Assembly (NCBI GenBank): GCA_037431425.1
Contig: GCA_037431425.1_4129.2
Origin: a phage
Length of the DNA: 64,000 nt
Reading direction: 5' to 3' (one strand)
Position numbers and translations under genes: made by a program. Numbering within the stretch: position 1 is the stretch's first letter; the number at the start of each line of letters is the position of its first letter. Under the pieces are notes generated by a model, which was given only the letters and a program-made list of their open reading frames with translations, made no database searches and was not told the DNA's origin. This document shows, in pieces, positions 30,201 to 47,561 of the stretch.

Positions 30201-31204
30201 GAATTATTGCCGTACTCATTTCCTTTTGTGACCAAAACTACGTCACCATTTTGTGGTTCACCACTTGGACGGGACTCAGTTTCTTCATTTGGATCTAGTG
30301 CTAAGCCATAAACGCGTGTACCATCTTGCATTTTTTTAACATACACTTTATAAATTCTATTGTTTTCACCATCATTACCAATACTGGTGAATAGAATACG
30401 CATACCATCTTGTGGAATAATACCATCAATGCGAATACCGCTATTGACATCTTTTTGAATAATATCTTCAGGTTTGATACTATCAGAAAAAAGTTCAACT
30501 GTTCCACGGAATTTTGTACCGTAGTTAATTAGCTCGATATTTTTATTATATTCGATAATTGGTGCACGAGCACGAATAAAACGAGAATCTTGCATTAGCT
30601 CTTCAGTCAAGATAGAACCGTCTTCTAGTGTTTCACCTAAAGTATACCAAAAGTTTTGCAAAGACCATGTATTACCATTAAGTGCTCCACGTTCCATTAC
30701 AATGTAATCAGGTGTAATGATATTATAAGAGTTTTTGGTATCCCAAAGATACGAACTAAAATTGTTCATTTTATTTGGGTTAATTGCAGGAGTCCATGCA
30801 TAAAACTTACCGTTAAATAAACGACTTTCATTATCGGTTAGTGCTCCGTAATGACTCATGTATCCAACAAGATCATCATAAAATTGAATTGAACGAATTG
30901 TTGAATCATCATTTTTAGAGACATAAGCAGTGGACAACTGATATAGTTGACGTGCAACAGAACTTTCATGCAAGAAGATATTACCAGCGGCAGCCGGAGA
31001 ACCCATGTCACCAATATAACCGTCAACCAATTCGTTTTCAGCCGGATTAAACCATTGTTGAATAACATCATCACTGACTTTTTGAATATCTTCTAAGCCT
31101 TGCATCCACTCAGGCAATCTTTTGATAAAAAGCTTTTTCTGTACTGCTTCAGCCATCTGTGTAGGTTGAAACTTAAAATTATTAGTCATTTTTCTGGACT
31201 CCAT
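21221..31204 (-). CDS. Giant virion protein (3327 aa), possibly an expanded gp7-like baseplate wedge protein
   Basis: Uninterrupted 10-kb ORF; downstream of the gp25-like and gp6-like genes, the slot gp7/gpI occupies in other contractile-tail baseplate clusters; GGAG sits before the sixth codon (ATG at 31189), so the true start may be there. Confidence 0.6.
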   Translation of the reverse strand: MESRKMTNNFKFQPTQMAEAVQKKLFIKRLPEWMQGLEDIQKVSDDVIQQWFNPAENELVDGYIGDMGSPAAAGNIFLHESSVARQLYQLSTAYVSKNDDSTIRSIQFYDDLVGYMSHYGALTDNESRLFNGKFYAWTPAINPNKMNNFSSYLWDTKNSYNIITPDYIVMERGALNGNTWSLQNFWYTLGETLEDGSILTEELMQDSRFIRARAPIIEYNKNIELINYGTKFRGTVELFSDSIKPEDIIQKDVNSGIRIDGIIPQDGMRILFTSIGNDGENNRIYKVYVKKMQDGTRVYGLALDPNEETESRPSGEPQNGDVVLVTKGNEYGNNSMYWNGTLWVRAQAKPSVNVFPQFQLYDRNGIKLDNSTTYPSSTFKGSPLFGFKINYNYAADSVYGYNIELGDYNYYTYENFLQSQRYTYDHLGVEVEIGGLYYYNIIDENNKMNLQTDWVRSKEFSKQFVKQTPQVKRTDMYRVFSSVYDMELFKEPVEGMYAYVIEVDKTYQYYKAERETYLDWHQISGDGIQVLKYDHTFELAQKVLDNDSDIIEVVVDGVNISKYTKNVLKGQVQSITIDNSVELDDDSVIQIRTYSSTVTPDKELGAYEVPINLQNNPYNSNIIYINQGDYTLHFQDIIQQNITSGYADDFNDYEERLAKGLVNNGVGTKIIQNEASMLPLMAHTANEDIDLFEATMFMQSEYFRFINKFNTQMLRMYNENPTNFLQNSAANIVDSILATINMGRDSSFPFYYDNVGSTSGLIRAFIPPTPQFLGILQAYVPEKATFLTAGSKPSYYNISHTGIISKAYRVINGVDKMDDVVYELENRIFNSIDNKFKDVDYVPVLNSDDLFPTPYFTKTEYSAEEKQTLLLRGYINFTASNGISNSTHDYDPNNWRTWNYTGTYYVVDGKSTEIPARGSWRAIYTDQYGTYRPATHPWEMFGFTQRPTWWNQEYEPTAVQVGERDGDVVYVYEALVTDEQGDLVPSGLWDVNDTIGDSSTGTILYGDRRGQYDKYKRFGVQPFKITKTGNKTSSGVDICVVEYIAPEVLGLVSGSLVHRAEPWAYGDMGDMEFTYMNTTLFAYDQMLLLYKAKPAQFANYYWDTRNDNLKEIITTGEQFLYGDTRNRVNFDKNTTVHGEDNTRTIGYQMFVSDYLMYQNKNITTKYGDVVRSSYVNVGHKIGGFTKADQLTFNAKSFGLISQENQTIGLVRSNNIRDEQMSAIKITWNGSAYQIDGYDLVGAKFKYKLPVKNGRKVTLKLENRNIVHYNEWKSEASIEYGTIFNSYQEVYTFICGYGEYLKEHGWIFEDVNQDGIQQDWHTIAKDFVIWSQSPLVTGEFISCTPSAANAKFGSDFGSVQSITQNNGGVWSLLDDNNQGIRQYEIETSRIGNIFTVRTTDSNKRIALIRLSLCSYEHAVIFDDKTIFGDYIYQPTYGSIQELIKMYGYITGSWTGRLQAPGFIILESGTIPSFETLVTDFQHYYDNEHPVSDVQLQELSSHLIGYQSRDYLQRMISSDVSRVDFYKGFIHDKGTNQVLERVLRVSKSYDTDEYKALQEWAFKVGTYGNIDGKKNLQFKLINDQFKQQPQMMSFDENATSNGNGNNIVFFGEQGKDPQWITRPNGKFSFPMRSGRSEHIQLPDIGPVTLDEVSYTTKDFSTAFNDRMLYINGKGENPESVWMFKDGNGLWNIFELIDTNVKMVSITPIETTDVYAEKFCKVTLSDDIPLEDGDYYYFVDETNFMPDTLTVESQYYTAGDDSKVMVVPFDTSINIEFTDPDTRPRLYRYVSRFVSTEERQAYIDKKYSFKAPQSTLFERPTTYDERTNITALYLNVYDPINGVIPGAAMQNVTYTSPIDPAQYNSNGELVQAWGAEKVGQVWWNTSTAFYLDYTRAIYDADGNVDIDATNEYKRYNWGRLLPHSTIDVLEWVCSPVEPYNWDKYCKDVAKKNKNNNMYLPSGTALEDNYSTFLEYDSSTDSYVTKYYFWVRDTIYVPPIHTRTKSCTDIARIIKDPSQLNIPWFAPINENSFILSNMQFEVNDDTSVLTISYYMDNTEVVKHDQYQLCKEGESYNFNPLIWDSMWNSLIGQETTKSGKVVDLLYPEVGTGLGSNKTWFQNIIEARRNFVESANNYYRSQNITTNSVVMEDVFNVKTTEVNPNEVSFRVLTYNNELVIAVEKDKFKENDAVILSSSGYLPTPLSTSAVYFIHFDENGYIQLMNSPANAGSVVTITLENKGEGQHKMIKQSDYVESLGTSLDMTQYWSYADWYDVGYDSKTAYIQEISLEEANAKNYQVGDIIRVTDSENIWTLYIKSQSRDSIYWKAIGRQRSTIELNDLFYVDYNVHNEDGSLSNREINIRKALALLKNSFDLHQSEIVFDMVKYVHVEQGVVDWVFKTSYIYIVGLEQSLVQNYSNDNLINQIVEYFEEVKPYRTKIRSQIEQKTSDDDLIKGLCNDLDPNGYIFVDGSWVKTEKDIWDYEYAQYNETTKKWEKVGSLPSDFIAPNRRFQEIDIIMHYDNIQCKPNKDLANINELISVNNKYQSNEKDSVNTYELQRYIYSYPVYNEQSFDLVNAYLLQTYYPELDVTLGTANGVNQWYKEHADDLEATDEFTATLERIYNESTHNEMFTDLRHYVQYNTLANRLKLYKDISDDKIHDEVGCGFSGLVYNDNPSTRLPLGFSSSNDYNYGYFEISKELYEKYISFITEKYPDASEHDIKVKLEVEYGVYVYRYDEIGGDTRFYSDAVHVLAAMRGLFDKDSTDMYEKAEEILSKTPIDIYAITMMPRKHVYLNINGEYQSIPDDKSIDDFMEDYFITNGEMIKLAEINLDDLPQDQNNPMYSDYQYIIDSIAEAKFFNDMNAFDNLALESQTSAIKWEVKDDEVDPYIIDISEINPASRAVGHIRFTVDGYGFDTESLVQLRNNSRYKTEGMAIINPYKHTEAIVSIPSYAKIEHDINKTASPFEEKYFYRVRSINSLTEAEIVDSDLSDGDKVMIFTPDGEDFIRYQNRTWETILRVSNIKHNTTPILFTVRTTGKETIELVDSSGNVLRYDNITLGQLNQPVQHLALNIVRVRTFADPEFTKGDIKLYEQNRNYTIDVINYDVFYDTTLNGGKYNDGVTPDDVDVWVVSNEIFNDDGITIDNGYNLPITGEGVLSELVRTKMPDCLEINVIEYDAKDIKPTKNNEGVWVYEYPMVDSMYIDVADATITNITTISEENTTYVAQPLSVSHYNVRNNVLSGSAANKSDIISIGYEKVEVRNTNNLLRGVMYSAEHDFKHDTTYSFNGINLGGYDKFKRYTQNSYTIDLSVYTNSLRVRGNDIQKILIVK

Positions 31205-31227: not shown

Positions 31228-31235
31228 TATTTATT
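31228..31235 (-). promoter_or_regulatory. Late-promoter-like box (AATAAATA) for the giant ORF
   Basis: Reverse complement of 31228-31235 is AATAAATA, 39 nt upstream of ATG at 31189. Confidence 0.4.
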
Positions 31236-31239
31236 AGAT

Positions 31240-31263
31240 AAAAAAGGCGTTCCGAAGAACGCC
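31240..31263 (-). terminator. Intrinsic terminator between the gp6-like gene and the giant ORF
   Basis: Stem GGCGTTC (31246-31252) / GAACGCC (31257-31263), loop CGAA; on the minus transcript it is followed by U6. Confidence 0.55.
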
Positions 31264-31270: not shown

Positions 31271-34200
31271 TTAAGAACCGATATTAATATTACTTTTAGC
31301 TAATGAGTTAACTATTTGAACATTTTCAACCGATGCAGTACTCAAGAATATTTGGTCCGAGCGTGAAGGTATTTCAAACAAAGAACCAAATTTGGAATTC
31401 GGATTTTGTGCAACTATAACAATTGTACTAATATGTCTTCCTAGTTGGGAATGTATATAAGTACATAAATCGGTATAATAGAAACTTTCACCAAAATCCC
31501 AGTTATCAACATTAAAATATTCATTCGTTAATGCTATCACATTTTGACGAATTTCATCATCACTCATCGTGCTATTTGGTAGCTTAACAACTTTAAAATC
31601 AGCTTTATAATCTTCCGCAGCACTGTTCCCAAATAATGGTAGATACTCTGCACTATGCCAGATAATACTATCACTGATGACTATTTTTTGTTCGACATCT
31701 TTGAACATATTTTTCAATTCAACTGATGTTGGAGGCTTCGGCATACTTCCAACTGCATTATTTTTTAACCACACATCAACTTCAGTTTTGTATGAGTTTG
31801 TTAGTACATACATATCAATTAGGTTTGTTCTACTAGGATCAATACGGTTATCATCAGGTGCATAATGTTTCCAATGGAAATCTATACTGGTACGAGCATT
31901 CGTCTTAACCGTATATTGCGATGTAACATCTTTATAACCATAATAATCCAACTTCTGATTCTCATCAGCATTAGTACCCATGTTATTAATTGAACGATAA
32001 AACGCAAGTTCAGGACTAATAGTTCCGGTATCATCGGAATATGTCAAATTACTGATTAATTGCCCCAAACGATCATTGTTATTACCAACAGTTTGTTCAA
32101 TAAAATAATATTTACCATCATATTTAAAACACACTAAGAATCCAGAGCCTTTACTATACAATCCACTCAATGTGTTAGAACGAATTGCATTATTTCGTAC
32201 AAATTCGGTTCTTTTATATGTATTAGGTTCAGCTAATGCTTGTTCCATCGTATAAGACCATGACGTATCCAGTAGTGAGAATGTATCATTTGGTAATGAC
32301 AGTACTGAAATTGTAAAATCATTATTTTCCTTGAATATCAATATACCACCGTATTTTAATGCATCAGAACCTGACCATTCTGGAACAATATCTTTAAATT
32401 GATTCGGTTCCAACGGTATACCATTACTATCTACTTTTCTAGAGGTGACAATAATACGAGAACCATCCAGATATCCATTTTCTTGCTGTATTGTGTCATA
32501 AATTTGAAAATCTATATTACTTGTTAGACCTGAGTTACTTGTGCTTGTTGTGTTGGATGATAAAATTTCAATTTTATCACTTTGAACTGTACCAGAACTA
32601 ATATCAGTTATTTTTTTGGATGAAACGAAATAGAATTTGACTTTATTACCACCAACAAATATATATTCAATACCATTTGCATCAAATTCCCAGGTTTCTG
32701 CTGTATATTTAACGTTTATTACAACTAAAACTTCGTGACCATTGTAAACAATAGTATCATCATTTGTACTAATTTCTACTGGAACCCATGAAGTTGTTTC
32801 TTTATCATGAACAATAACAAAATCAGTTTTTTTATCAAGCATTGCAGAAATAGACTGAACCTCAACCGAATCAAATCTTGTTCTATATGGTAATATATAA
32901 TCAATTGCTTGCATTTTACTAGAAACTGGCGTACTTAATACATAAAACCCATTATCTAAAACACTAATAACACTTGCCCATATAGTTGTTGTAGAGTTGG
33001 AGAACTTAATTAAAGTGCCAACCTGATACGAATTATATACTGTCCCAGATGATCCCATGATTCTTCCATATGTATTGGTAGTATAATTCGAATTATAAAC
33101 AGGTGTCCATGATTGTTGAAGTTCAATTCCAATAGTATTTGGTGGATATGCTTGATAACGTTGTATCACAGCATTTTCACCAATTAGTGGTTGAATATTG
33201 TCAATTACGATACTGGCATTTGTTTTTGTAGTTGGTAGTAATAAAGATTTATTAAATTTAGTATTTTCTTTATATAATGCACCATCATCACTAAAAACAT
33301 CAGTATTTTGATATTTTCCAGTAGGGTCATTAATATCAATGAATCGAGACTGTCCACTATAAATTCTATTAATAGCTTTTGACTTAAGTACAGTGTTACC
33401 TAAACTGAGTGGAGCAATATTATAATCTTCACCATTAACAAAACGGTTTTGTGTGTAATACATTTGTGGTGCTCGTGCTTTAATTTGCTCAATAGTCTCA
33501 GCACTTTGTGCACGATCTGATTCGTATTGTAATGAAAAGCGTACATCTAGTGTGCTTGATTCATAACTGGATTGTGTTTTAGTACGATACGTATATTTTA
33601 CACTTTTATTTTGAATTTCTGACGTTTTGATGTTATATGTTTTACCATTACTAACACGATACCACACACGGAATGTACCACGCGGAACAACACCACTTCT
33701 GGAATCTGGATATTTAATTGTTATTTGATCTTTATCACGAGTTGTAACTGCAAAAATTGTTTTAAGCTGGCGATTGACCGTGTTGTATGCAATACTTTCC
33801 ATGGATGGAACTTTTGTCCATTTGGTACGAACAATACCATCTTCATTGATTTCTTGTACCCAAACATCAGTTTCATTTATGTTATCAACGTTTACCTCTT
33901 GTATTCTATTTTCTTCACGAATATTATATTGGTAATCTTGATATGTCAATGTTCCTTGGATAAAATACACAAAAAAACCAGTATTTGGTGAACTGAATCC
34001 ATTACCATCATTTTGGTACACAATATATTTTTGCTCTTGTGGTTCTGGATGTCTCTCTTCAACACCAACAGATGTAATGTCAGGGTTAACCACTTCAAAT
34101 GTCATTGATTCACCATTAACAGTTGCAACAAATGGTATACTTGGAGCACTCATAGGAATAGTATTCATTCGATAAAGCTGACGTGACACCCCATTGACAT

Positions 34201-34732
34201 CAATACGTTTAACTGGATTACCGAACTGATTAGTACTAACAAATGAACTATTCATAACAAGAATAAAGTTTTCATACCAATTCGCATCCATTGGGTCGTT
34301 CCAACGAATAATTTTATCTTTTAATGATTCATTAAAACTATTACGAACATCTTGGTTTGTTTTAATTTCTGTTAATTTTGCTACTGCACGACCTGGATAT
34401 GAGCGACGTGGTGTATACGAAATCATTTTGGCTAATTTTAGAACCGATGCACGGCGTGTAGCAGTATCTAAGAAGTTTTCACGCGTGTTCAAATCCATAC
34501 GAAATGCCAAGTTCTGACCCAGCATTGAAATGGTATCAAGAATAAAAATAAACTGATCGTTTTCAATCCAGTCATTAAATGAATCAGGATACGTTTGACG
34601 CAAATAATCAATCATACTCTGGCGAATAGTATCAAAGTCAAATGCCGTGAGATTGATTTTATAAAAACTTTCATATACTTGTGTCCAATCTTCACCACTA
34701 TATAAATTTGATTGCCTTTTTTGTTGTGACAT
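31271..34732 (-). CDS. Baseplate wedge protein, T4 gp6-like (1153 aa)
   Basis: N-terminal segment NDQFIFILDTISMLGQNLAFRMDLNTRENFLDTATRRASVLKLAKMISYTPRRSYPGRAVAKLTEI parallels T4 gp6 YDFEGSRLNVLCDLLAYNTLYIQQFGNAAVYESFMRTANLRSSVVQAAQDNGYLPTSKSAAQTEI (from memory); RBS AAGGA. Confidence 0.55.
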   Translation of the reverse strand: MSQQKRQSNLYSGEDWTQVYESFYKINLTAFDFDTIRQSMIDYLRQTYPDSFNDWIENDQFIFILDTISMLGQNLAFRMDLNTRENFLDTATRRASVLKLAKMISYTPRRSYPGRAVAKLTEIKTNQDVRNSFNESLKDKIIRWNDPMDANWYENFILVMNSSFVSTNQFGNPVKRIDVNGVSRQLYRMNTIPMSAPSIPFVATVNGESMTFEVVNPDITSVGVEERHPEPQEQKYIVYQNDGNGFSSPNTGFFVYFIQGTLTYQDYQYNIREENRIQEVNVDNINETDVWVQEINEDGIVRTKWTKVPSMESIAYNTVNRQLKTIFAVTTRDKDQITIKYPDSRSGVVPRGTFRVWYRVSNGKTYNIKTSEIQNKSVKYTYRTKTQSSYESSTLDVRFSLQYESDRAQSAETIEQIKARAPQMYYTQNRFVNGEDYNIAPLSLGNTVLKSKAINRIYSGQSRFIDINDPTGKYQNTDVFSDDGALYKENTKFNKSLLLPTTKTNASIVIDNIQPLIGENAVIQRYQAYPPNTIGIELQQSWTPVYNSNYTTNTYGRIMGSSGTVYNSYQVGTLIKFSNSTTTIWASVISVLDNGFYVLSTPVSSKMQAIDYILPYRTRFDSVEVQSISAMLDKKTDFVIVHDKETTSWVPVEISTNDDTIVYNGHEVLVVINVKYTAETWEFDANGIEYIFVGGNKVKFYFVSSKKITDISSGTVQSDKIEILSSNTTSTSNSGLTSNIDFQIYDTIQQENGYLDGSRIIVTSRKVDSNGIPLEPNQFKDIVPEWSGSDALKYGGILIFKENNDFTISVLSLPNDTFSLLDTSWSYTMEQALAEPNTYKRTEFVRNNAIRSNTLSGLYSKGSGFLVCFKYDGKYYFIEQTVGNNNDRLGQLISNLTYSDDTGTISPELAFYRSINNMGTNADENQKLDYYGYKDVTSQYTVKTNARTSIDFHWKHYAPDDNRIDPSRTNLIDMYVLTNSYKTEVDVWLKNNAVGSMPKPPTSVELKNMFKDVEQKIVISDSIIWHSAEYLPLFGNSAAEDYKADFKVVKLPNSTMSDDEIRQNVIALTNEYFNVDNWDFGESFYYTDLCTYIHSQLGRHISTIVIVAQNPNSKFGSLFEIPSRSDQIFLSTASVENVQIVNSLAKSNINIGS

Positions 34733-34834
34733 AATTTATTCCTTTAAATCAGTAAAGTACTAGTTCAGTACTGGGAATTATATAGAAATATTTATTCAAA
34801 AAGAAAAGCACCCCGAAGAGTGCTTTTTTAATAT

Positions 34835-35230
34835 CTACAAAGACGATACTGAATATGTTGCCATTCTATTATTACTTCTTGCATCAAATACAATAGAAAG
34901 TTCCTCTACAGTATTCAATACTACATAATGCAATACTATGTTCATTTGATATCCATATTCTATCCTTGAAATTTGTATTTTTTTAAGATTCAAACGTGGA
35001 TCTAAAGAAATAATCCTTCTGGCATCTGCTTCCAAAAGGTTCATAGTATTATAACCTTCCAATTCAAACAACAAATCCCATGCAATAAAACCATAGTCTG
35101 CATCAAATGCCCTTTCGCCTTTTTTTGTATTGAAATGGTTCATTAAATCCTGACGAACCAGTTCAGTATCGTACAATGTTTCCGTTCTACCCACAACTGG
35201 TGTGGAGAAACCTTTAAAAACAACTGCCAT
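34835..35230 (-). CDS. 25: Baseplate wedge protein, T4 gp25-like (131 aa)
   Basis: FDADYGFIAWDLLFE...LLEADARRIISLDPRLNLKKIQI parallels T4 gp25 FDPEFGCDLSDQLFE...TADTVERNIESAVRNYEPRIDKLAV; RBS AAGGA. Confidence 0.6.
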   Translation of the reverse strand: MAVVFKGFSTPVVGRTETLYDTELVRQDLMNHFNTKKGERAFDADYGFIAWDLLFELEGYNTMNLLEADARRIISLDPRLNLKKIQISRIEYGYQMNIVLHYVVLNTVEELSIVFDARSNNRMATYSVSSL

Positions 35231-35243
35231 TGTCTATTTCCTT

Positions 35244-35732
35244 TTATACGGATTCGACGATTCGTGCCATCTTTTCCGCTCTAGAAGTGGTTTGTTTATA
35301 CCAGGTACTATCACGCAATTCTTTACCAGCAGTTTTATAATCAGCATTACCCAATGCGGTCATTGCTTTTTTAAATTTCAAAACTTTGGCTTTGCCCATT
35401 TGGAACACCATCATCCACAAAACACGCTGTACTTGTACTGGTGCAGTCATGCCAAATTGCTCATAAATTGATTTTGCGTCATTGTACGCGGCCTGAGCAT
35501 CTTTAATAAGAAGTTGTTCAGCTTGTTCTTCAGTTAAGCCATTTTTGAAGTTTTCACCAGGAAGAACTAAATGACCATAACCAATAGTATCAAGTCCCAA
35601 GCTATCTTTATATACCCAAAACTTATCATTTTTAAAATAACCAAGTTTTTTCTGATAAGCAATAGTTCCTTCAAATTCTTTGATTTCATTAAAAAATTGC
35701 TCATCTGTATTTTTAATTTCCCATTTACTCAT
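35244..35732 (-). CDS. T4-lysozyme-type (GH24) lysozyme, stand-alone (162 aa)
   Basis: Catalytic-region motifs EFEGTIAY ... YKDSLGLDTIGYGHLV match T4 lysozyme E11/D20/T26 context; ~55% identical by eye to the C-terminal domain of the adjacent spike gene. Confidence 0.8.
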   Translation of the reverse strand: MSKWEIKNTDEQFFNEIKEFEGTIAYQKKLGYFKNDKFWVYKDSLGLDTIGYGHLVLPGENFKNGLTEEQAEQLLIKDAQAAYNDAKSIYEQFGMTAPVQVQRVLWMMVFQMGKAKVLKFKKAMTALGNADYKTAGKELRDSTWYKQTTSRAEKMARIVESV

Positions 35733-35768
35733 AAAGACATCCTTATATTATTTATAGTACTAAAATAT

Positions 35769-38432
35769 TTATTGACATGCCTCTAAACGACGAGCCATTA
35801 ATTCAGCACGGCGTGTTGTTTGACGATACCAAGCCGAATTTCGTATTTGAGCAGCAGCTTGTTTATAGTTTCCTTTGGCTAATTCAGACAACATGGTCTT
35901 AAATTTAAGGACACCCCCTTTACCCATCTGGAATACCATTTGACATAGAACTTGTTGTGCCATGTAAGGAGTTTTCATGTTATATGATGCATAAATTGCC
36001 TTAGCATCATAAATTGCTTTACTACTGTCTCTAACAAGCATATCATTGGCTTCTTGTTCAGTTATACCTGACGAAAAGTTCTCACCGCTAACAATTAAGT
36101 GACCGTATCCAATAGTAGGGAATCCACGACTATCTAAGTAACGCCAGAATTTACCATTACGGTAATATCCTTTTGCTTGTTGATATTGTATTGTACCCTC
36201 ATATTCTTTTAATTCCGAAATAAACTGAGCATCACCTGGGACGATTTTCCAATCTATTGCTGTTTTATCTACGTTACCAACATTATATGTAGGTTGTTCA
36301 ACTGGCGTTGATGATACACTTCTACGTTGTGTTCTTCTTTTGCGTGGTACATGTCGTGAACCACGCTGAGAATAACCAGTCCCAATTGTTTTAATTTTAG
36401 TAGTTACTACTAATTCATCACTATCTACTGACGGTTGCACAACTGCTTGCGGTGACGATTGATTAGTTGCTTTTCCAGCAATCAAGGTTTTATTAGCTGC
36501 ATCTGCTCCAATTCCAGTTTGTGATGCATAGAACAATCCCGGATCAACTGAACCACTAAACCCAAGTACATTTGCAGACGTTACACGTATTTCAAATTGA
36601 ATAACACCTTTAGCTTTACCTATAACTTGTCCTTTTTGAACAACATCTTTATTCAATAAATCAGTTTGAATATTATAAAATATAGATTTATATCCAGATT
36701 TGTGTTGTATTAAAATACCACCATTGGTGATTGAAACAACACCACCATCTGGTGCAACAACATCACCTTTGCATTGTATTTCCCATCCAGAACGATCTGC
36801 TTTTCCACCGTTTTGTGTTGGAATACCTTTCCCCCAGTAACCATATTGACGAATTGTCCCACTACATGGCATATACATATGTAAACCTTCATATGTGATA
36901 CTATATCCAGTCATCCCAGCATCAGATACCATCAAATCTTGTGTTTGTACTTGTTCTGTTTCAGGGGTATAGTTAATAAACTGTATAGCTTCAGTTTCTT
37001 GAGCTTCTGGAATTTCTGGTGTAACATCATTAGCAGGTTGTGGCTGTACTGGTGATTCACTTGAAATCTTCCCACCGCCTTGTCTCGGTGGTTCAACAGT
37101 ACTACCATGTTTTTCTGCATTAACCCAAGCAGAAATGTCATGAATGTGTTCATTTAGACCCGTAGATGGTGTTTTAAAGTTAGGAGCAGTAAATTCAGCA
37201 GTTCCGCTGTTTCCTCCACTGTTAACAGTCAATGTTTGACCACCACCACTAATTATTGCTGATGATGAACCAATTAAATTTGCGGAAGTAGAAGCAGATA
37301 TAGATGCATTTGAACCTGCGGTAATATCAGTACTACTACCACTTTGCATACGCAATGATGCAGCAGTAACTAATCGGAGATCTGCACCAGAATTAACAAC
37401 AACCTGACCACCAACTTTTGCATCAAGTGCACCAATTAAATCCAACTTAGTATTTGCACCAACACGTGCATTGAAATCTTGACCAGATTCAATATTATAT
37501 GAACGACCAGCAATCATATTAATATCCTGACCAGCACGAATATTGATATTCTTATCACAATGCATATCAATATCACCTTCACCTGTAAATTTTATGCGTG
37601 CTGTTCCGTCACGGTTAATTAACAGAACGTCGCCTGTTGCTTCTGACAGTAATAGCTGTGCACCACTGCGAGTTTTTATAACAACTCCTTCATTTTTACG
37701 GGAACCAACACGTGTATCGTTTACTGGGTTATTAAATTGTGTATCCTGATAACCATCTGGATCTTGATCCCATGTAGGTGCGGTTAATTCCTCTTCAGTA
37801 TATCCATCATCGATAATAAAACTATTTCCACGTGGTGACGACATGCCATATACAGTACTGGTTGTCTGGCGGGTGCTACTGCGATTAGCAAGACCTGCTT
37901 CTTCATCATATAAAAGGTTTTGTTTTTTCAAACCAGCAATGATTGGAACGTTTGCATACTTATCTTGCATGTCCGTTGTGATTGTGTTACGATCATAATC
38001 AGTAACAGGGATAGGCATATCCGTTCCGCTATAACTACTAACTTCAGTTGCCATGCCTGGAACCATAGTATTCATGCGATGGTCATATACACAGCCAATC
38101 CAATATGCCTGAAATGTACGTGCCTGTGCGAAAATCACAATAACAGTGCACCCAACATCAGGCGGTACAGCCCAGAATCCATAGCCTTTGGGATATTGAC
38201 CATATGCATCGGCACTTGGAATACCTGGTGTTTTGCCAGCAAATGGTGACATATATGATGCTTCAATCCATGATTCTTTGGAATTTTTATCACTTTGTGA
38301 ACCTTGTATCCAAACTTTCAATTTTCCTGATTTAGTTGGATCTCTATTATCCATAACCGTTGCTAACTGTGGGTAAGATGGGTCAAAACGACCCAACTGT
38401 TGTTGTGCATACTTTTTACTTGTATCTGCCAT
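35769..38432 (-). CDS. Baseplate central spike, gp5-like (887 aa): OB-fold N-domain, beta-helix, M23-like domain and C-terminal lysozyme domain
   Basis: N-terminal VMDNRDPTKSGKLKVWIQGSQSD...GFWAVPPDVGCTVIVIF (gp5/VgrG-type); repetitive beta-helix segment; LytM-fold block ILIQHKSGYKSIFYNIQ...KGQVIGKAKGVIQFEIR; C-terminal EYEGTIQY...LDSRGFPTIGYGHLI lysozyme. Confidence 0.7.
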   Translation of the reverse strand: MADTSKKYAQQQLGRFDPSYPQLATVMDNRDPTKSGKLKVWIQGSQSDKNSKESWIEASYMSPFAGKTPGIPSADAYGQYPKGYGFWAVPPDVGCTVIVIFAQARTFQAYWIGCVYDHRMNTMVPGMATEVSSYSGTDMPIPVTDYDRNTITTDMQDKYANVPIIAGLKKQNLLYDEEAGLANRSSTRQTTSTVYGMSSPRGNSFIIDDGYTEEELTAPTWDQDPDGYQDTQFNNPVNDTRVGSRKNEGVVIKTRSGAQLLLSEATGDVLLINRDGTARIKFTGEGDIDMHCDKNINIRAGQDINMIAGRSYNIESGQDFNARVGANTKLDLIGALDAKVGGQVVVNSGADLRLVTAASLRMQSGSSTDITAGSNASISASTSANLIGSSSAIISGGGQTLTVNSGGNSGTAEFTAPNFKTPSTGLNEHIHDISAWVNAEKHGSTVEPPRQGGGKISSESPVQPQPANDVTPEIPEAQETEAIQFINYTPETEQVQTQDLMVSDAGMTGYSITYEGLHMYMPCSGTIRQYGYWGKGIPTQNGGKADRSGWEIQCKGDVVAPDGGVVSITNGGILIQHKSGYKSIFYNIQTDLLNKDVVQKGQVIGKAKGVIQFEIRVTSANVLGFSGSVDPGLFYASQTGIGADAANKTLIAGKATNQSSPQAVVQPSVDSDELVVTTKIKTIGTGYSQRGSRHVPRKRRTQRRSVSSTPVEQPTYNVGNVDKTAIDWKIVPGDAQFISELKEYEGTIQYQQAKGYYRNGKFWRYLDSRGFPTIGYGHLIVSGENFSSGITEQEANDMLVRDSSKAIYDAKAIYASYNMKTPYMAQQVLCQMVFQMGKGGVLKFKTMLSELAKGNYKQAAAQIRNSAWYRQTTRRAELMARRLEACQ

Positions 38433-38442
38433 ATTTTATTCC

Positions 38443-40692
38443 TTAATCAACTATACTATCTTGACGTTTAAGTGCACGGATTACAATTGCAGCTTGAATT
38501 TGTTGTGTGAAAGAACCACCTGCTCCAAAGTCATGCACAATTTTATTAACACGATAAATGGTTTGATTAAACGTGGTTGGTGTATTAATATCCAATACAC
38601 CCGTGTTATCATTAATTGATACTACAGGTTGTAATTTAAGTAAAAGGTATGCTTCAGATGTTATATAGTTTGCTACATGATAATCATCTGGATTAATTTC
38701 CATATCTTCCCCATTAATTACTTGCTCTAGATATTGTAAGTACGAATAATCACTCCATCCAAGCCAATATGGGTCACCAACAACTCGCATATCAAGTTTA
38801 CACAAAAAAGGTCTATTGTAATAGTTGTCACGTATTTTACGTCTATCCATTTCATATGTACTACTGTTATCATTTAATGAAGCAGACAGTGTGGTTTCGT
38901 TGTTAGTTGCTTCAGTTGGCATAGTGAATATTTGACCATATCGATGACCAACGCCGTCAGTACCTTCATCAGTTTCTTCATATGTGGAGACATAATCTTC
39001 AATATATTGTGGTAATACATTTACTTGATAATTATTATAACGATCCTGCTCTTCTGCATTTCCAACCTGCATTTGGTTTTTAGCTAATGTGTCAATATCA
39101 TTTAATAAATCTTGCTGATCTTTGGTTAGCATACCACCCATATCACGTGTAACACGCAAATCGCTTGTTTTCGCCCATGCATCTGGTATACTATTATATT
39201 GTACACCTTGTATATTCAATTCTTGTGAGTTATGTGTACCTGAATGGTTTGCTACGTCTTGTATTGGACCAGGGTTGCGAGTAGTAGCTACAAAAAATTG
39301 CTGGTCAAATTTCAAATCCAAATCAAGTATCTCACTATTAAGTCCACTAAACTGATAATTATAAGTTTTCATGTTTATTTTAGGTTTTTGATCAATAGGA
39401 TCTACGTATTTTTCTGCGTTCTCAAAAAAGTACTCAAATGTGAAATTTTCTGGTTTCAAGTCAGATTCATGTACAATGTCACCTATTTTAAATTTAACTA
39501 TGTAAAAAATTACTTTATAAACAGATGTATTACGATAATTATCAAAACCTATATATTGTTTTATTGGTATAATATTAACAAATTGTCTTACACTAGTACT
39601 CTCATCCGCTTGTACAGTACAAGTGTCGATAACATCATCAATAATTCTTGATATTGGTGTGCTTGGGTTCCATGAAAAGTTTTTAGAACCTTGTGTTCCA
39701 CTTTTAGTCGTTCCTGCTTCTGCCATTTGTTTTGAATCATAGTTGATAAAAAGATCTTGTAAATCAGGAGCTACTTTAAATTCAAAAAATTTACCATCGG
39801 ATAATTCACCAAATTTATATCTTAGATAGCCATATTGTTGATCTGCCATTTGATTTAATTTATCTTCTAAATCAAAACAGAAATCACCAAAGTTTTCAGC
39901 CGTACAGTTAAATGGTTCTTTTAATGTCCATTCCATGTTGTCAACTAATGCTGCTCTATTATGAACTAAACTCATAGTATATAGCATAGTACTACCACTT
40001 TGTGATGCACTTGCTGTAATACTATTAATTTTTACAGACCATCTTCTCGTGGTTTCTGGTATAATCTCAGGTATTCCATTCTTATTAAAACCAACAAACT
40101 TTAACTCTAAGATTAAAGGTAAGTCCATGAATTTATGAAATCTAAGTTTGTTACTTAAAGATACTAATTCGTCATATAGACTCATACTGTTATTCTCAGA
40201 CATATTAAGAACTGCGGTATTAAAACAATAATTCGTTGTCATTCCTGGTGTGGATGGTCCTGCTTGTGTCATTTGAACACTTGTTATATTATATTTTCCA
40301 CTAACGCCACTTTCTGATATAACATAGCGTTGTACCTCTGCATCAGGGTAAAGCCAAAAGTTTTTGAAATCATCTTTATCTAAAGCAAACAGACAAAAAT
40401 GCCAAGTTGGGTTGTCATATTTTAATAACTTATTCTCATATGGTATTACAAACTGACTTAAATCCAAATCTTCATAAACTTGGTCCATTCCGGCACTTTG
40501 TGATGGTAATGATTCAACATTACTAACGTTTGCTTTATAATTATTTTTCGTGATAGTTTTTACATCATTTTGTAATGTATTGGTGGTGGCTTTCAAATTA
40601 TCAAGTGAATTATTTGCAGTTGTTTTTGTCTTACCAGTGATATTTGATATATCATTTTGAAAATTATCAACTGTACTTCGTAAATCTGCCAT
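38443..40692 (-). CDS. Hypothetical baseplate protein (749 aa), possibly gp27-like hub by position
   Basis: ORF with RBS GGAG; sits between the LysM-like gene and the spike gene; no motif recognised. Confidence 0.5.
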   Translation of the reverse strand: MADLRSTVDNFQNDISNITGKTKTTANNSLDNLKATTNTLQNDVKTITKNNYKANVSNVESLPSQSAGMDQVYEDLDLSQFVIPYENKLLKYDNPTWHFCLFALDKDDFKNFWLYPDAEVQRYVISESGVSGKYNITSVQMTQAGPSTPGMTTNYCFNTAVLNMSENNSMSLYDELVSLSNKLRFHKFMDLPLILELKFVGFNKNGIPEIIPETTRRWSVKINSITASASQSGSTMLYTMSLVHNRAALVDNMEWTLKEPFNCTAENFGDFCFDLEDKLNQMADQQYGYLRYKFGELSDGKFFEFKVAPDLQDLFINYDSKQMAEAGTTKSGTQGSKNFSWNPSTPISRIIDDVIDTCTVQADESTSVRQFVNIIPIKQYIGFDNYRNTSVYKVIFYIVKFKIGDIVHESDLKPENFTFEYFFENAEKYVDPIDQKPKINMKTYNYQFSGLNSEILDLDLKFDQQFFVATTRNPGPIQDVANHSGTHNSQELNIQGVQYNSIPDAWAKTSDLRVTRDMGGMLTKDQQDLLNDIDTLAKNQMQVGNAEEQDRYNNYQVNVLPQYIEDYVSTYEETDEGTDGVGHRYGQIFTMPTEATNNETTLSASLNDNSSTYEMDRRKIRDNYYNRPFLCKLDMRVVGDPYWLGWSDYSYLQYLEQVINGEDMEINPDDYHVANYITSEAYLLLKLQPVVSINDNTGVLDINTPTTFNQTIYRVNKIVHDFGAGGSFTQQIQAAIVIRALKRQDSIVD

Positions 40693-40704
40693 GTGTTACT
40701 CCAT

Positions 40705-41019
40705 TTAGCCTATATTTCGAGTACCATTAAGATAGTTTTGTACTCTTTGATTTGCTGGTATTCTAATTGTTACCCCACTTTTAAAATTATATATTGGGTC
40801 TTCTCCTAATATGTCTGGATTTAATAACGCAAAGATATAATATAATCGTTCATTTCCGTACATTTCGTATGCCAAACGCCATGGTTGGTATTCATATTTC
40901 AATGGTATCTCATAAAAATCATCAGTATCTGCCGGAATGATGTCACGTGGTAAATTATACCCAAGATACCATGTTTGTTTCACCTTAGCATAAGGTGAGT
41001 ATTGACTATAGTTGGACAT
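40705..41019 (-). CDS. LysM-like small baseplate protein (104 aa), gp53/gpX-like
   Basis: WRLAYEMYGNERLYYIFALLNPDILGEDPIYNFKSGVTIRIP resembles LysM and T4 gp53 (ANAIYGNPQLYWVLLMCNDNYDPYY); RBS GGAGGA; 1-nt stop/start overlap with upstream gene. Confidence 0.5.
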   Translation of the reverse strand: MSNYSQYSPYAKVKQTWYLGYNLPRDIIPADTDDFYEIPLKYEYQPWRLAYEMYGNERLYYIFALLNPDILGEDPIYNFKSGVTIRIPANQRVQNYLNGTRNIG

Positions 41020-41750
41020 TAAATAAATCCTCCGTTGCGTAATAGTTCACCTCGCTTAAAAGCATTTAGGTTGAATGTTTTAGTCATATAATCGGAAGTA
41101 GGTTGTTCTTCAAGCTGTATCATAACCGATATTTTTTGTGGAACCCAAACCTCATCTTGTGGGTTCATATACCCAGTACTTCTAAGTTGTTCAAAGAATT
41201 TCCTACTATCCATATCGGATAAGTTAAATGTACTGTCACTACTATTCAAAGGAACTTGAATATAAGAAACATCATTTGGATATGTAAAATTATAAGATTT
41301 TAAAATAACAGGAATATCATTATATGTATATCGCCCATACCCACTTAAAAGTAAGATTGGTGGTGGAGCACCTGCAATTGCAAGTTCTGGGTTATTCGCT
41401 GAAGCAGCTTGTCTACCAAAATCCATCAATGAAACTGAACGTATAAAATGGATACATGCTAATGTGTACATAGCTTCTGCTGCTGTGTTAGCATAAAACT
41501 CACCCTGAATGGTGAAAACAGTATTAGAAGTGTTCTTATAGTTGTTATAGTTACTGTTGGTATGTATCGGTGACTGTGTTTCATACTGAATTGACCTTTG
41601 TTCAGTAATTATTGGTGTTACAGTCCATACCAACCCATTAGTTGGACGCAGAAACGAAAGTAGTGTGGGTTCAGAACTATCTCCGAAATCTCCATATACA
41701 TAGTTAGCACCTGCGGCTTTAGGTCGTAATCGAATTCTACGATCAATCAT
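41019..41750 (-). CDS. Hypothetical baseplate/tail protein (243 aa)
   Basis: Start moved from track 41777 to ATG at 41750 (GGAG 8 nt upstream); a late box then sits 34 nt upstream. Confidence 0.5.
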   Translation of the reverse strand: MIDRRIRLRPKAAGANYVYGDFGDSSEPTLLSFLRPTNGLVWTVTPIITEQRSIQYETQSPIHTNSNYNNYKNTSNTVFTIQGEFYANTAAEAMYTLACIHFIRSVSLMDFGRQAASANNPELAIAGAPPPILLLSGYGRYTYNDIPVILKSYNFTYPNDVSYIQVPLNSSDSTFNLSDMDSRKFFEQLRSTGYMNPQDEVWVPQKISVMIQLEEQPTSDYMTKTFNLNAFKRGELLRNGGFI

Positions 41751-41783
41751 TTTTGATTCTCCATAATAAGGGAACATTTGATG

Positions 41784-41791
41784 TATTTATG
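41784..41791 (-). promoter_or_regulatory. Late-promoter-like box (CATAAATA) for the minus-strand baseplate operon
   Basis: Reverse complement of 41784-41791 is CATAAATA, 34 nt upstream of ATG at 41750. Confidence 0.4.
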
Positions 41792-41879: not shown

Positions 41880-42719
41880 ATGACAAGTAGACCAAAGCGT
41901 AAAAAGTATCTCAACAATGCAGATTTACTTCGTGAAATACAAAAAAGTAAGATTTCATACTGCTGGTTATTAGATAAATCATATAGTATGTATGATTATA
42001 TTGTCTTTCATGAATCTGAAATCACGGCTGAGTTACTTGAAAAAGCTAAAGCAGCACGAATTAAAAGACTCAACAATGAAATGCTTGAAAGTATTCGTGC
42101 AAAGGAAAACATGAGTGCAAAAAAAGCAAAGGAATATGCAGAAGAGAATAATTTAGTTATTACTGACGTTCCAATTGATGAAGTTGTTATTCGTGTTATT
42201 ACTGATGAACACATTCCACCAGATACTAGAGTTAACTTTGAACCATTCAAGCATTATATTGTGGATAATGAAGGTATCCTTTATGAAGTTTGTCGTTCTC
42301 ACTGGAAAGGTGACCTAGAAACTGGTGAATTCTGCACTATTCACGGTAAAATTACTAATGAATTGGGTAAAATGTTCATTAAACTTGCAGAGGAAATCTC
42401 ACATAAATCTAATTATAGAAACTATACTTACTTAGATGAAATGATGGGCGATGCAAGAATTCAATTAGTTAAAAATGCACTACTCTTTAAAGAGAGTATT
42501 CTTTATAAAAAAGATAAACCAGCCGTACAATTAAATCCTTTCTCTTACTATACATCGTTTGTAAACAATAGCTTTCGTTCTATTTTGAATAGTGAGAAAA
42601 ATGTTCGAAATATACGTGATGATTTACTCGAAATGCATGGTTTTACACCATCACACACACGTCAAATTGAAATTGAATTGAACATGATTGAAAGGAAAAA
42701 TGAAGATGGCTCTATTTGA
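41880..42719 (+). CDS. 55: Late-transcription sigma factor, T4 gp55-like (279 aa, with a ~100-aa insertion)
   Basis: N-terminal KKYLNNADLLREIQ parallels T4 gp55 KYNYVNNKELLQAII; C-terminal NPFSYYTSFVNNSFRSILNSEKNVRNIRDD parallels [28 protein letters not shown]; T4 gene order 55-47-46 preserved. Confidence 0.7.
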   Translation: MTSRPKRKKYLNNADLLREIQKSKISYCWLLDKSYSMYDYIVFHESEITAELLEKAKAARIKRLNNEMLESIRAKENMSAKKAKEYAEENNLVITDVPIDEVVIRVITDEHIPPDTRVNFEPFKHYIVDNEGILYEVCRSHWKGDLETGEFCTIHGKITNELGKMFIKLAEEISHKSNYRNYTYLDEMMGDARIQLVKNALLFKESILYKKDKPAVQLNPFSYYTSFVNNSFRSILNSEKNVRNIRDDLLEMHGFTPSHTRQIEIELNMIERKNEDGSI

Positions 42720-46497: not shown

Positions 46498-46527
46498 AAA
46501 TCCCCACCAAACTAATTTTTATAAAAA

Positions 46528-46535
46528 TATTTATG
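46528..46535 (-). promoter_or_regulatory. Late-promoter-like box (CATAAATA) for the endo VII-like gene
   Basis: Reverse complement of 46528-46535 is CATAAATA, 31 nt upstream of ATG at 46497. Confidence 0.35.
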
Positions 46536-46588
46536 AGTTACATTAGAGAACAATAATTATGTGTTTTTTGATAAATAAATTTAAATTA

Positions 46589-46618
46589 TTTGAGACAACT
46601 TTGAAGTTTGTGCTATAA
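46589..46618 (+). promoter_or_regulatory. Strong sigma70-like promoter firing into an ORF-free interval
   Basis: TTGAGA (46589-46594) - 18 nt - TGcTATAAT (46610-46618); no ORF of 60 aa or more downstream until the terminator at 47069-47093. Confidence 0.5.
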
Positions 46619-46624
46619 TGTTTG

Positions 46625-47309: not shown

Positions 47310-47339
47310 AAACAAAAAAAACCAGCAACAATGTGCTGG
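47310..47339 (-). terminator. Intrinsic terminator after the 69-aa gene
   Basis: Stem ACCAGCA / TGCTGGT (47320-47339); on the minus transcript it is followed by U8. Confidence 0.55.
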
Positions 47340-47351: not shown

Positions 47352-47561
47352 TTAGTGCTTCTCGTTTTGTTTTTTAATTTTCTTATTAAAAGACTTAACT
47401 AATAAGTCTCTATCTATTAAAGGCATATTAAGAAGTGTTCCATAGTCAATATTATCCATATAAACAGAACACTCCATTAGTGCTTGTTTGATTTCTGACT
47501 TATTCAGTTCTATCTCCCTTATGACTTCTTGTATTTCTTCAGGAGTTGACTGGAGAAGCAT
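47352..47561 (-). CDS. Small hypothetical protein (69 aa)
   Basis: ORF translationally coupled to upstream gene (1-nt stop/start overlap at 47561); followed by a terminator. Confidence 0.45.
   Translation of the reverse strand: MLLQSTPEEIQEVIREIELNKSEIKQALMECSVYMDNIDYGTLLNMPLIDRDLLVKSFNKKIKKQNEKH

Follow-up and report, generated by a model that had tools for sequence, protein, structure and literature searches.

Does the order of the baseplate genes in this phage mark an unusual, deep-branching lineage of T4-related viruses, or is T4 itself the exception? The question is raised by eight open reading frames on the minus strand, which extend from 41750 to 21221 of the analysed window (the whole 64-kb stretch of phage DNA). 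The series begins with a 243-aa product, a small gp53/LysM-like protein (104 aa) and a 749-aa product; the gp5-like spike (887 aa) and a lysozyme (162 aa) come next, then gp25, the gp6-like protein (1153 aa) and finally a giant protein of 3327 aa. This order, given in the original prediction, was present as described. We consider that the region, in an Asteriusvirus jumbo myophage, encodes the inner baseplate and the parts for cell puncturing, with a colinear layout that is common outside T4's branch and a split in T4 that is derived (probability of about 85%).

Phage identity and transcription of the cluster

The phage is a jumbo E. coli phage of the genus Asteriusvirus, sequenced before, and the region is its baseplate-core gene cluster. 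Over 10.5 kb, the DNA is 99.6% identical to that of Escherichia phage ph0011 and about 88% identical to that of 121Q/PBECO4. The 121Q/RaK2-like jumbo-phage group was described earlier, and its distant relationship to T4 has been published (PMC5259590). The clusters of ph0011, 121Q, PBECO4 and phAPEC6 (Asteriusvirus), CBB, GAP32 and RaK2 have an identical gene set and order, except that the 121Q record shows an HNH endonuclease gene separating the gp6-like gene from the gp25-like one. The gp5-, gp6-, gp25- and gp53-like assignments have already been published or annotated for the Asteriusvirus/CBB/GAP32/RaK2 group. The hub and tube-initiator assignments proposed below are new relative to public records, where the 749-aa and 243-aa products are called 'structural protein' or 'hypothetical protein'. 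Virion proteomes of phAPEC6 and CBB obtained with mass spectrometry include orthologues of the cluster proteins, among them those of the 243-aa and giant proteins; the tables of virion proteins for both phages list neither gp25 nor the free lysozyme.

The cluster is probably expressed late. The ATAAATA motif, published for CBB and GAP32, occurs at 23 sites in the window, and 16 of these precede a gene start by 12–57 nt on the coding strand (binomial P about 1.5e-22). Late-promoter-like copies on the minus strand precede the 243-aa gene (41784..41790, 34 nt upstream) and the free lysozyme gene (TATAAATA at 35749..35755, an ATAAATA motif 17 nt upstream), and ATAAATA motifs on the same strand are found upstream of the gp6-like gene (34789..34795) and the giant ORF (31228..31234). 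Intrinsic-terminator-like hairpins, also on the minus strand, follow the gp25 gene (34804..34827, a 10-bp stem and a T-run) and the gp6-like gene (31246..31263). Motifs and terminators together delimit at least four late transcription units. The cluster is adjoined by a divergent gene for a gp55-like late sigma factor (41880..42719, plus strand; phrog_12791 E 5e-154, phrog_234 E 3e-17), which is consistent with late expression.

The gp55-, gp47-, gp46- and gp49-like genes stand between the cluster and the gene for a gp26-like hub/assembly protein (47561..48395, minus strand; PF12322 T4_baseplate E 6.7e-25; phrog_150), the start of which, 48395, was set according to the ph0011 annotation and an ATAAATA motif at 48433. 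A 733-aa protein (48521..50722, plus strand), present in the virions of CBB and phAPEC6, is tentatively proposed as the tape measure (gp29 analogue) on a weak match to phrog_167 (E 2.9e-7). Separately, a structured RNA of roughly 470 nt was noted at 46.6–47.1 kb; it is conserved and multi-copy, with strong covariation and no Rfam family.

Gene order across phages

The gp25 gene is located between the spike and gp6 genes as in Mu and P2, a likeness noticed in the original prediction: Mu gp43–gp48 have the same order and P2 has V-W-J-I. The two-block arrangement ascribed to T4 was likewise confirmed, with genes 53, 5, 5.4, 6, 7 and 8 at 77.4–87.2 kb and genes 25, 26/51, 27, 28, 29, 48 and 54 at 115.4–122.7 kb. 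PA5oct and XacN1 possess orthologous clusters in unchanged order, and in Atu_ph07 only gp25, gp6 and the giant gene stay together. KVP40 and Aeromonas phage AsFcp_4 (Angelvirus), both Straboviridae, feature the order gp48, gp53, hub, gp5, 5.1, PAAR, gp25, gp6, gp7, gp8, and gp25-gp6-gp7 adjacency is found in cyanophage S-CAM1, pelagiphage HTVC008M and Vibrio phage VmeM-32 (Emmerichvirinae). T4 and an Acinetobacter Lazarusvirus were the only surveyed genomes with the split layout, and T4 is therefore a misleading reference: the exception is T4, and nothing is unusual about the gene order here. A colinear arrangement is what T4 relatives outside T4's branch and Mu-like tails commonly have, and the T4 split is derived, the polarity being judged by outgroups, with about a dozen genomes compared, rather than from a rooted phylogeny.

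The original prediction held the colinear order to be unusual in T4-core phages and kept from an ancestral Mu/P2-type operon by a deep-branching lineage alone. Colinearity with Mu gp43–gp48, unlike T4, and the distant relationship of the phage group to T4 agree with such a history, but we find it improbable. Synteny comparison places the order in KVP40 and AsFcp_4 too, inside Straboviridae, so it is not distinctive of this phage. Because these two phages, the cyanophages, the pelagiphage and the Emmerichvirinae phage have all or part of the order, with gp25-gp6-gp7 kept together in the last three, it is not lineage-specific and is no sign of an especially deep branch. What stands of the proposal is the ancestral type of the order, which can reasonably be extended to T4-like phages in general.

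Equally little weight is given to the suggestion that the colinear order was reassembled independently in several lineages, selection favouring the co-transcription of interacting baseplate proteins, and that the T4-type split could be older within T4-like phages. T4-like genomes are highly rearranged, the presence of at least four late transcription units makes strict operon linkage unneeded, and Atu_ph07 has retained only three genes together. However, the eight-gene order, even gp53 between the initiator and the hub, recurs in lineages as distant from one another as Mu, KVP40 and XacN1, and arriving independently at an identical order is less parsimonious than the common colinear layout with a derived split in T4.

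Products of the cluster genes

The 243-aa protein (41019..41750, minus strand) is assigned, on its predicted structure, as the tail-tube initiator, or baseplate tube cap, of the gp48/gp54/Afp7 class. The ORF is open to 41777 (41019–41777, 252 aa); the ATG at 41750 is the start used in homologues and in the ph0011 annotation. A Foldseek search of the PDB with the AF2 model (pLDDT 86.5) pointed to the baseplate-initiators of cyanophage A-1(L) (E 6.5e-7), to Pvc7, Afp7, Alg7, Mu and pyocin, and to T4 chains of gp48/gp54 length; the matches at E up to 0.001 are tail-tube-fold proteins, tube initiators first. Orthologues are encoded at the corresponding place in PA5oct and XacN1, and the gene stands in the gp48 position of KVP40 and AsFcp_4. 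The link to the gp48/gp54 families, for which a search had been suggested, was thus found at the fold level. The neighbouring 104-aa protein (40705..41019, minus strand) is a short form of the gp53-like LysM-type baseplate protein. It matches PF11246 Phage_gp53 above the Pfam cutoff (E 8.7e-5), phrog_7145 (E 4.6e-45), also matched by T4 gp53, and KVP40 gp53 (phmmer E 2.7e-8), and its LysM-like core aligns with P2 gpX.

The 749-aa protein (38443..40692, minus strand) is modelled as an enlarged gp27-type baseplate hub. The AF2 model is of moderate confidence (pLDDT 66.6), and every one of the 25 PDB matches in Foldseek at E up to 0.001 is a tail-tip protein of the hub or VgrG type; T4 gp27 (E 1.7e-6), Mu gp44, phi812 and T6SS VgrG are among them. 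The TM-scores are low, 0.2–0.3 by query length and 0.4–0.5 by target length. BFVD matches to the model included a 423-aa protein of Vibrio phage VH7D (KVP40 group), named 'baseplate hub protein' (E 4e-10), as well as one resembling P2 gpD. The gene lies where KVP40, AsFcp_4 and Mu encode their hub. The suggested relation to the gp27 family therefore holds for the fold; no sequence or profile link to gp27 or KVP40.0334 was found. That the 243-aa and 749-aa products are other virion proteins, matched through artefacts of beta-barrel-rich models, is most improbable: PHROGs assigns them to 'head and packaging', they have no Pfam or PDB sequence match and the pLDDT of the larger model is moderate, but zero head proteins occur among the PDB matches at E up to 0.001, and the gene positions equal those of gp48 and the hub gene.

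The 887-aa central spike (35769..38432, minus strand) comprises, according to Pfam, a Phage_base_V OB fold (PF04717, residues 23–116), a DUF2345 beta-helix (PF10106, 280–326), a weak M23-like region (PF01551, below its cutoff and with His ligands missing) and a C-terminal T4-type Phage_lysozyme domain (PF00959, 765–882) with the Glu/Asp/Thr residues kept. The PA5oct orthologue stops after the beta-helix. The spike itself bears a lysozyme domain besides the separate T4-type lysozyme of 162 aa (35244..35732, minus strand; PF00959 Phage_lysozyme), which refines the original prediction; the free enzyme is a paralogue of the spike C-terminus, with 52% identity to residues 728–886.

The 131-aa gp25/gpW-like wedge protein, or sheath initiator (34835..35230, minus strand), matches PF04965 GPW_gp25 (E 5.6e-9) and, in phmmer, gp25 of T4, KVP40 and S-CAM1 and P2 gpW. 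The gp6/gpJ-like wedge protein (31271..34732, minus strand) matches the gp6-type wedge family phrog_219 (E 3e-21, residues 26–125) and S-CAM1 gp6 (phmmer E 1.1e-10), and contains large lineage-specific additions. Its size had been given correctly as 1153 aa versus 660 aa in T4, and orthologues in PA5oct, Atu_ph07 and XacN1 have 971–1319 aa. The proposed domain expansions are real, the proteins being larger than those of T4, and are common to these same three phages. The 3327-aa giant virion protein (21221..31204, minus strand; phrog_10938) is encoded in the gp7 position, and orthologous giants come after gp6 in PA5oct, XacN1 and Atu_ph07. BLASTP, phmmer, hhalign, Pfam and a motif HMM found no gp7 homology; around residue 1531, an 'FY...KGT' motif is similar to that of gp7/gpI, a likeness without statistical support. 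Neither a PAAR tip protein nor a second initiator (gp54 analogue) was found within the 64-kb window. The assignment of all eight cluster genes as baseplate genes is supported.

Proposed assembly and comparison with known systems

The present analysis supplies the family and fold identities, the order of the genes and the finding that PA5oct and XacN1 conserve it, and virion incorporation comes from published proteomes; the structures of T4, Mu and contractile injection systems suggest how the parts would act together. Hub and spike trimers would form a central needle, and an initiator hexamer on the hub would template the tube. Six wedges, consisting of the gp53-like protein, gp25, two gp6 copies and the giant protein, would be arranged round the hub. 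Host binding would lead to baseplate opening and then to sheath contraction; the spike would be driven across the outer membrane, and its lysozyme would cut peptidoglycan.

The T4 baseplate proteins gp5, gp27, gp48, gp54, gp53, gp25, gp6 and gp7 have structural roles equal to those of the cluster here, and likeness by sequence is seen for the gp5 OB fold and lysozyme, gp25, gp53, the gp6 N-terminus and gp26. The two T4 blocks are about 32 kb apart, and the cluster proteins here are 1.5–3 times larger. In T4 gp5, the lysozyme (chain residues about 190–326 of 575) separates the OB fold from the beta-helix, whereas the spike here carries it at the C-terminus.

KVP40 (Schizotequatrovirus) and AsFcp_4 are alike in the order of initiator, gp53, hub, spike, gp25, gp6 and gp7-position genes, with gp53, gp25 and gp26 as detectable homologues. 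Their late cluster runs gp48-gp53-hub-gp5-5.1-5.4-gp25-gp6-gp7-gp8. KVP40 has a PAAR gene between gp5 and gp25, and gp8–gp12 afterwards, whereas here a lysozyme gene replaces 5.1/PAAR and a single giant ORF is present. In size, the KVP40 proteins resemble those of T4: the hub has 423 aa, gp5 (which lacks a lysozyme) 421 aa, gp6 652 aa and gp7 1165 aa.

Mu Mup43–Mup48 are colinear with the cluster (initiator, hub, spike, gp25-like, gp6-like, gp7-like), and Mu is matched at the fold level by the 243-aa model (a baseplate chain) and the 749-aa model (gp44); the Mu tape-measure gene immediately precedes the cluster, and Mu proteins are 3–10 times smaller. P2 has the V-W-J-I operon and encodes the hub (D), U and X in separate operons. 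The 243-aa protein has some of its best fold matches in contractile injection systems, namely Afp7, Pvc7 and Alg7. The AFP (Afp7–Afp12) and PVC (Pvc7–Pvc12) clusters have the order initiator, spike, gp25, gp6, gp7, with hub and spike fused as a VgrG-like protein and the LysM domain within the initiator. Unlike that arrangement, hub, spike, initiator and LysM-type protein are encoded here by separate genes.

Phage identity and the baseplate-core cluster

The phage belongs to the genus Asteriusvirus. A region of 10,507 bp of the window is 99.6% identical to Escherichia phage ph0011 (GenBank OP557969) of this genus, and the same 10.5-kb region demonstrates 87.8–89% identity to phages 121Q (87.8%), PBECO4, phAPEC6 and around 30 further jumbo coliphages about 350 kb in size, with high nucleotide identity accompanied by colinearity with the genus members. 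PHROG and Pfam matches were found in the window for all late and replication core genes of T4 that were sought, namely gp20 (portal), gp21 (protease), gp23 (major head protein), gp15, gp25, gp6, gp53, gp5, gp26, gp55 (late sigma factor), gp46/47 and gp49 (endonuclease VII). The distant relation of the ‘Rak2-like’ group to T4 has already been published (PMC5259590). The window also contains a gene for a 532-aa homing/HNH endonuclease just after the major head gene (56949–58547, plus strand), a Clp-type ATPase gene flanked by the giant ORF and the gp15-like gene (18898–21186, plus strand) and a gene for a 778-aa tail protein with a colanic-acid-degradation-type domain (9832–12168, minus strand).

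The baseplate-core genes occupy positions 41750 to 21221 of the minus strand and encode proteins of 243, 104, 749, 887, 162, 131, 1153 and 3327 aa; all eight ORFs are present where the original prediction, made from the sequence alone, had described them. The open frame of the first gene spans 252 codons, and its 96 homologues, as well as the ph0011 annotation, begin at the second ATG, which gives the predicted 243 aa. According to published mass spectrometry, the virions of phAPEC6 and of the related phage CBB contain orthologues of the 243-, 104-, 749-, 887-, 1153- and 3327-aa proteins. The free 162-aa lysozyme, which is not listed in the published tables of virion proteins, may be either an endolysin or an enzyme bound loosely to the tail.

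Proteins of the baseplate core

Homologues of the 243- and 749-aa proteins were collected and aligned, and structures were then predicted. Neither protein has a Pfam match or a PDB match by phmmer or profile, and hhalign produced no match to T4 gp27, gp48 or gp54. The predicted model of the 243-aa protein is confident (pLDDT 86.5), and its best PDB fold matches obtained with Foldseek are tail-tube initiators: the ‘baseplate-initiators’ of cyanophage A-1(L) (E 6.5e-7) and Afp7, Pvc7 and Alg7 (E about 1e-5). Streptomyces CIS, phage Milano, diffocin, Mu and R2 pyocin are further fold matches, and two T4 chains, with lengths fitting gp48 and gp54, match more weakly (E 3e-3 to 6e-3). At the fold level, the protein features the tail-tube fold of gp48/gp54, gpU and Afp7.

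The model of the 749-aa protein is of moderate confidence (pLDDT 66.6). All 25 of its PDB matches with E up to 0.001 (range 1e-7 to 4e-4, Foldseek) are hub or VgrG-type tail-tip proteins, including the phi812 hub, T6SS VgrG, CIS spikes, T4 gp27 (E 1.7e-6), Mu gp44, a Neisseria gpD-like protein and proteins of 80alpha and T5; Hcp and tube proteins match more weakly. Among predicted viral structures (BFVD), the matches comprise a 423-aa protein of Vibrio phage VH7D named ‘baseplate hub protein’, proteins of cyanophage and Campylobacter phage origin and one named ‘late control protein D’. The resemblance to the gp27/gpD-type hub, a trimer with two tube-like barrels, is at the fold level only. Because of these fold matches of predicted structures, the 243-aa protein is assigned as the tube initiator and the 749-aa protein as an enlarged gp27-type hub, by fold similarity only. 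The expectation that both proteins belong to baseplate families is thus borne out by fold, while sequence profiles gave no bridge to gp27, gp48 or gp54.

A profile search of 1.84 billion representative proteins (50%-identity library) returned 2141 cluster representatives related to the hub with E up to 1e-3, mostly 600–1000 aa in length. The hub profile of 137 sequences built after this search reached XacN1, and no match to KVP40.0334, T4 gp27, Mu gp44 or P2 gpD was obtained with it. The names of some predicted viral relatives of the hub mention lysozyme or M15 peptidase domains.

Other proteins of the cluster are linked to T4 families by sequence. The 104-aa protein belongs to the gp53 family (PF11246, above its cutoff; phrog_7145), T4 gp53 matches the same small PHROG, and the protein can be aligned to P2 gpX across the LysM-like core. 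The 131-aa protein is a gp25/gpW-like sheath initiator (GPW_gp25, PF04965, 36.1 bits against a cutoff of 27.2; P2 gpW by phmmer, E 4e-4). The 1153-aa protein has no Pfam match and is a gp6/gpJ-like wedge protein according to phrog_219 (E 3e-21) and S-CAM1 gp6 (E 1.1e-10); it is alignable to T4 gp6 over the N-terminal ~100 aa only. The counterparts in the window are also detected by phmmer with gp53, gp25 and gp26 of KVP40 and gp6 of S-CAM1. When all ORFs of 40 aa or more in the six frames of the window were searched with a profile of T4 gp5.4, KVP40 PAAR and S-CAM1 PAAR, no PAAR tip protein was found (best E 0.41); its gene may be located elsewhere in the ~348-kb genome.

The 887-aa protein (35769–38432, minus strand) is a gp5/gpV-type spike. 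It combines a Phage_base_V OB fold at residues 23–116 (PF04717, 29.5 bits, cutoff 23.8), a beta-helix at about 260–450 that gives the DUF2345 match (PF10106, 31.3 bits, cutoff 30.7) and a C-terminal Phage_lysozyme domain at 765–882. The architecture of T4 gp5, in which the lysozyme lies between the OB fold and the beta-helix (about 190–326 of 575 residues), is not found here; the lysozyme follows the beta-helix instead. The 162-aa Phage_lysozyme protein (35244–35732, minus strand) is a 52%-identical duplicate of this C-terminal domain, and both copies retain the Glu/Asp/Thr residues. An M23-like stretch of the spike (36600–36800, minus strand, residues about 545–650) scores below the Pfam cutoff and is devoid of zinc-binding histidines. 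Since the PA5oct spike orthologue ends about 45 residues past the beta-helix, the linker, the M23-like region and the lysozyme look like an addition absent from PA5oct. The HIH triplet at residue 429, after the beta-helix, was considered as an HxH iron-binding apex motif and rejected, being absent from the PA5oct and XacN1 orthologues.

XacN1 encodes an M23 peptidase with the HxH motif HLH in a gene of its own between the spike and gp25 genes (L008, 13110–13949), and the XacN1 spike would end, as we read the sequence, in a transglycosylase-like segment. The spike–gp25 junction is occupied by a lysozyme gene in the window phage, by an M23 peptidase gene in XacN1 and by 5.1/PAAR in KVP40, and this slot seems to swap cell-wall hydrolase modules.

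The domain expansions proposed for this lineage were confirmed and are common to its jumbo relatives. The hub is 749 aa long compared to 391 aa in T4 and 423 aa in KVP40, the spike 887 aa compared to 575 and 421 aa, gp6 1153 aa compared to 660 and 652 aa, and the protein in the gp7 position 3327 aa compared to 1032 and 1165 aa, respectively. The latter, giant ORF adjoins the gp6-like gene in the window phage as well as in the jumbo phages PA5oct (3857 aa), XacN1 (3313 aa) and Atu_ph07 (more than 4100 aa), and these four giants are homologous over the first ~2450 residues. In KVP40, AsFcp_4, S-CAM1 and HTVC008M, the next gene after gp6 encodes gp7 or a gp7-like giant. Neither BLASTP against T4 gp7 and the S-CAM1 giant nor phmmer against gp7 gave a significant match, no link to gp7 was provided by hhalign with the N-terminal and central segments of the giant or by Pfam on the conserved segment of the four giants, and a motif HMM built on six gp7/gpI sequences failed to rank the giants. 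With no homology to gp7 found, the gp7 role of the giant is putative and assigned by position; wedge proteins of the gp7/gpI/TssG type build the core bundle together with two copies of gp6. A homologue search with its N-terminal 355 aa returned only three close matches.

Near residue 1531, in the segment that is best conserved among the giants, lies the motif ‘FY(x)5KGT’. The sequence ‘DFYKGFIHDKGTNQVLERVL’ (about 26570–26650, minus strand; residues about 1519–1544), conserved in the giants of PA5oct, Atu_ph07 and XacN1, resembles, without HMM support, the ‘FYxxKGT’ / ‘HKGT’ of gp7 of T4, KVP40 and cyanophages and of P2 gpI. It is conceivable, if rather unlikely, that the giant is a true gp7 homologue with added domains, forming together with the enlarged hub family an ‘expanded’ baseplate of jumbo T4-core phages. 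Its conserved core at about residues 1270–1600 (‘FY...KGT’) would then be flanked by added domains of roughly 1300 and 1700 aa, and a single polypeptide would stand in for a large part of the peripheral T4 baseplate (the roles of gp8–gp11); with the hub family of more than 2000 clusters (50% identity, metagenomes), this would constitute a distinct ‘expanded’ architecture.

Late expression and a structured RNA candidate

The 7-mer ATAAATA is depleted window-wide (23 found against 36.7 expected), and 16 of the 23 copies precede a gene start on the coding strand by 12–57 nt (P about 1.5e-22). Examples on the minus strand are found at 41784, 35749, 34789 and 31228, before the 243-aa, lysozyme, gp6-like and giant genes, and on the plus strand at 48482, 53710, 54370, 55579, 58930 and 59277. 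The pattern agrees with a late promoter of the T4 type that is read with the gp55-like sigma factor, and ATAAATA had been put forward earlier as the late promoter in CBB and GAP32. The complete octamer of T4 late promoters, TATAAATA, was also considered and rejected, as it is not enriched (6 found against 10.3 expected); positional enrichment is confined to the 7-mer. A separate TATAAATA motif precedes the free lysozyme gene by 17 nt. Terminator-like hairpins follow the gp25 and gp6-like genes, and these, taken with the ATAAATA sites, indicate that the cluster comprises several late units and not one operon.

An ORF-free gap of 850 bp (46498–47351) contains a candidate non-coding RNA of about 470 nt (46590–47150, plus strand), with a sigma-70-type promoter with an extended −10 (TTGAGA-18-TG-TATAAT, 46590–46619), a terminator (47071–47093) and a conserved GC hairpin (47106–47118). 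The MFE z-score of the sequence between promoter and terminator is −4.6, and the element has no Rfam match. Copies with 63–73% nucleotide identity are present in CBB, GAP32, Serratia BF, Yersinia fHe-Yen9-04, XbC2 and metagenomic jumbo phages; the element is conserved in Mimasvirus and Eneladusvirus, with four to five places per genome matched by BLAST, and in CBB, Serratia BF and EJP2 the syntenic copy is flanked by the endonuclease VII and gp26-like genes. For 66 pairs in 13 helices, pairing across 18 copies amounts to 97.8%, compared to 40–47% in slid controls, 35 pairs demonstrate double compensatory changes, and none of 500 shuffles reaches the observed scores. Searched with the covariance model, the window yields one copy. 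Homology to ncRNA001/002 of PA5oct was rejected, as the model finds no copy in those loci. No publication on the element was found, and it looks like an undescribed family of phage ncRNA.

The window differs from ph0011 by 1 nt in a T-run at about 47007 and by 4 nt in an A-run at about 47310. The former difference interrupts an ORF inside the RNA element that ph0011 lists as a 96-aa ‘hypothetical protein’ and that is probably not a gene. The neighboring gp26-like ORF (minus strand) has its longest start at 48502, and the ph0011 annotation and the ATAAATA at 48433 favour 48395 (279 aa). Directly downstream of it, a 69-aa ORF (47352–47561, minus strand) resembles, by alignment only and without statistics, the C-terminal motif of T4 gp51 and, also by alignment only, the 55-aa ‘hub assembly catalyst’ KVP40.0327 in the same position.

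Gene order in comparison with other phages

The order of the cluster had been taken as the mark of a special, deep-branching lineage, in contrast to the two separated blocks of T4 and in agreement with the Mu and P2 clusters. The orders quoted for T4, Mu and P2 were correct, and the initiator, hub, spike, gp25-, gp6- and gp7-like genes indeed follow one another on one strand as in Mup43–Mup48, with the difference that no tape-measure gene is adjacent in the window cluster. The same colinear order is nevertheless not special, being found in KVP40, AsFcp_4, PA5oct and XacN1. Of the earlier interpretation, the baseplate genes, their colinearity and the expansions stand, and the distinctiveness of the order does not. 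Between the gp25 and gp6 genes, the intergenic region (34733–34834) matches 121Q and JP4 in two separate pieces, and gene 584 of 121Q, annotated between the gp6-like (583) and gp25-like (585) genes, encodes an HNH endonuclease; this suggests a homing-endonuclease insertion that the window phage lacks.

The cluster has already been sequenced and largely annotated. New at the annotation level are the assignments of hub and initiator and the slot for hydrolases; their consequences for biology in general are small, and a specialist would not be surprised. Two proteins listed publicly only as structural or hypothetical in 121Q/RaK2-like phages receive functional names (tube initiator and gp27-type hub). 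The results are useful for jumbo-phage annotation and for modelling a future cryo-EM map of the baseplate, the published map having a resolution of about 25 Å.

The whole order is present in PA5oct and XacN1. KVP40 carries gp48, gp53, a 423-aa tail protein, gp5, 5.1, PAAR, two reverse genes, gp25, gp6, gp7 and gp8, and Aeromonas phage AsFcp_4, like KVP40 a member of Straboviridae, has the same run uninterrupted. S-CAM1, HTVC008M, VmeM-32 and Atu_ph07 keep gp25–gp6(–gp7) together. Among about a dozen genomes compared, the split layout was seen in T4 and an Acinetobacter Lazarusvirus. With colinear Mu as an outgroup, the simplest reading of these genomes is that the colinear order is old and that the T4 branch rearranged it. 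The order of the window phage is the rule and not an exception: the colinear arrangement initiator–gp53–hub–spike–gp25–gp6–gp7 is widespread among T4 relatives, and T4 itself is a poor reference for baseplate gene order.
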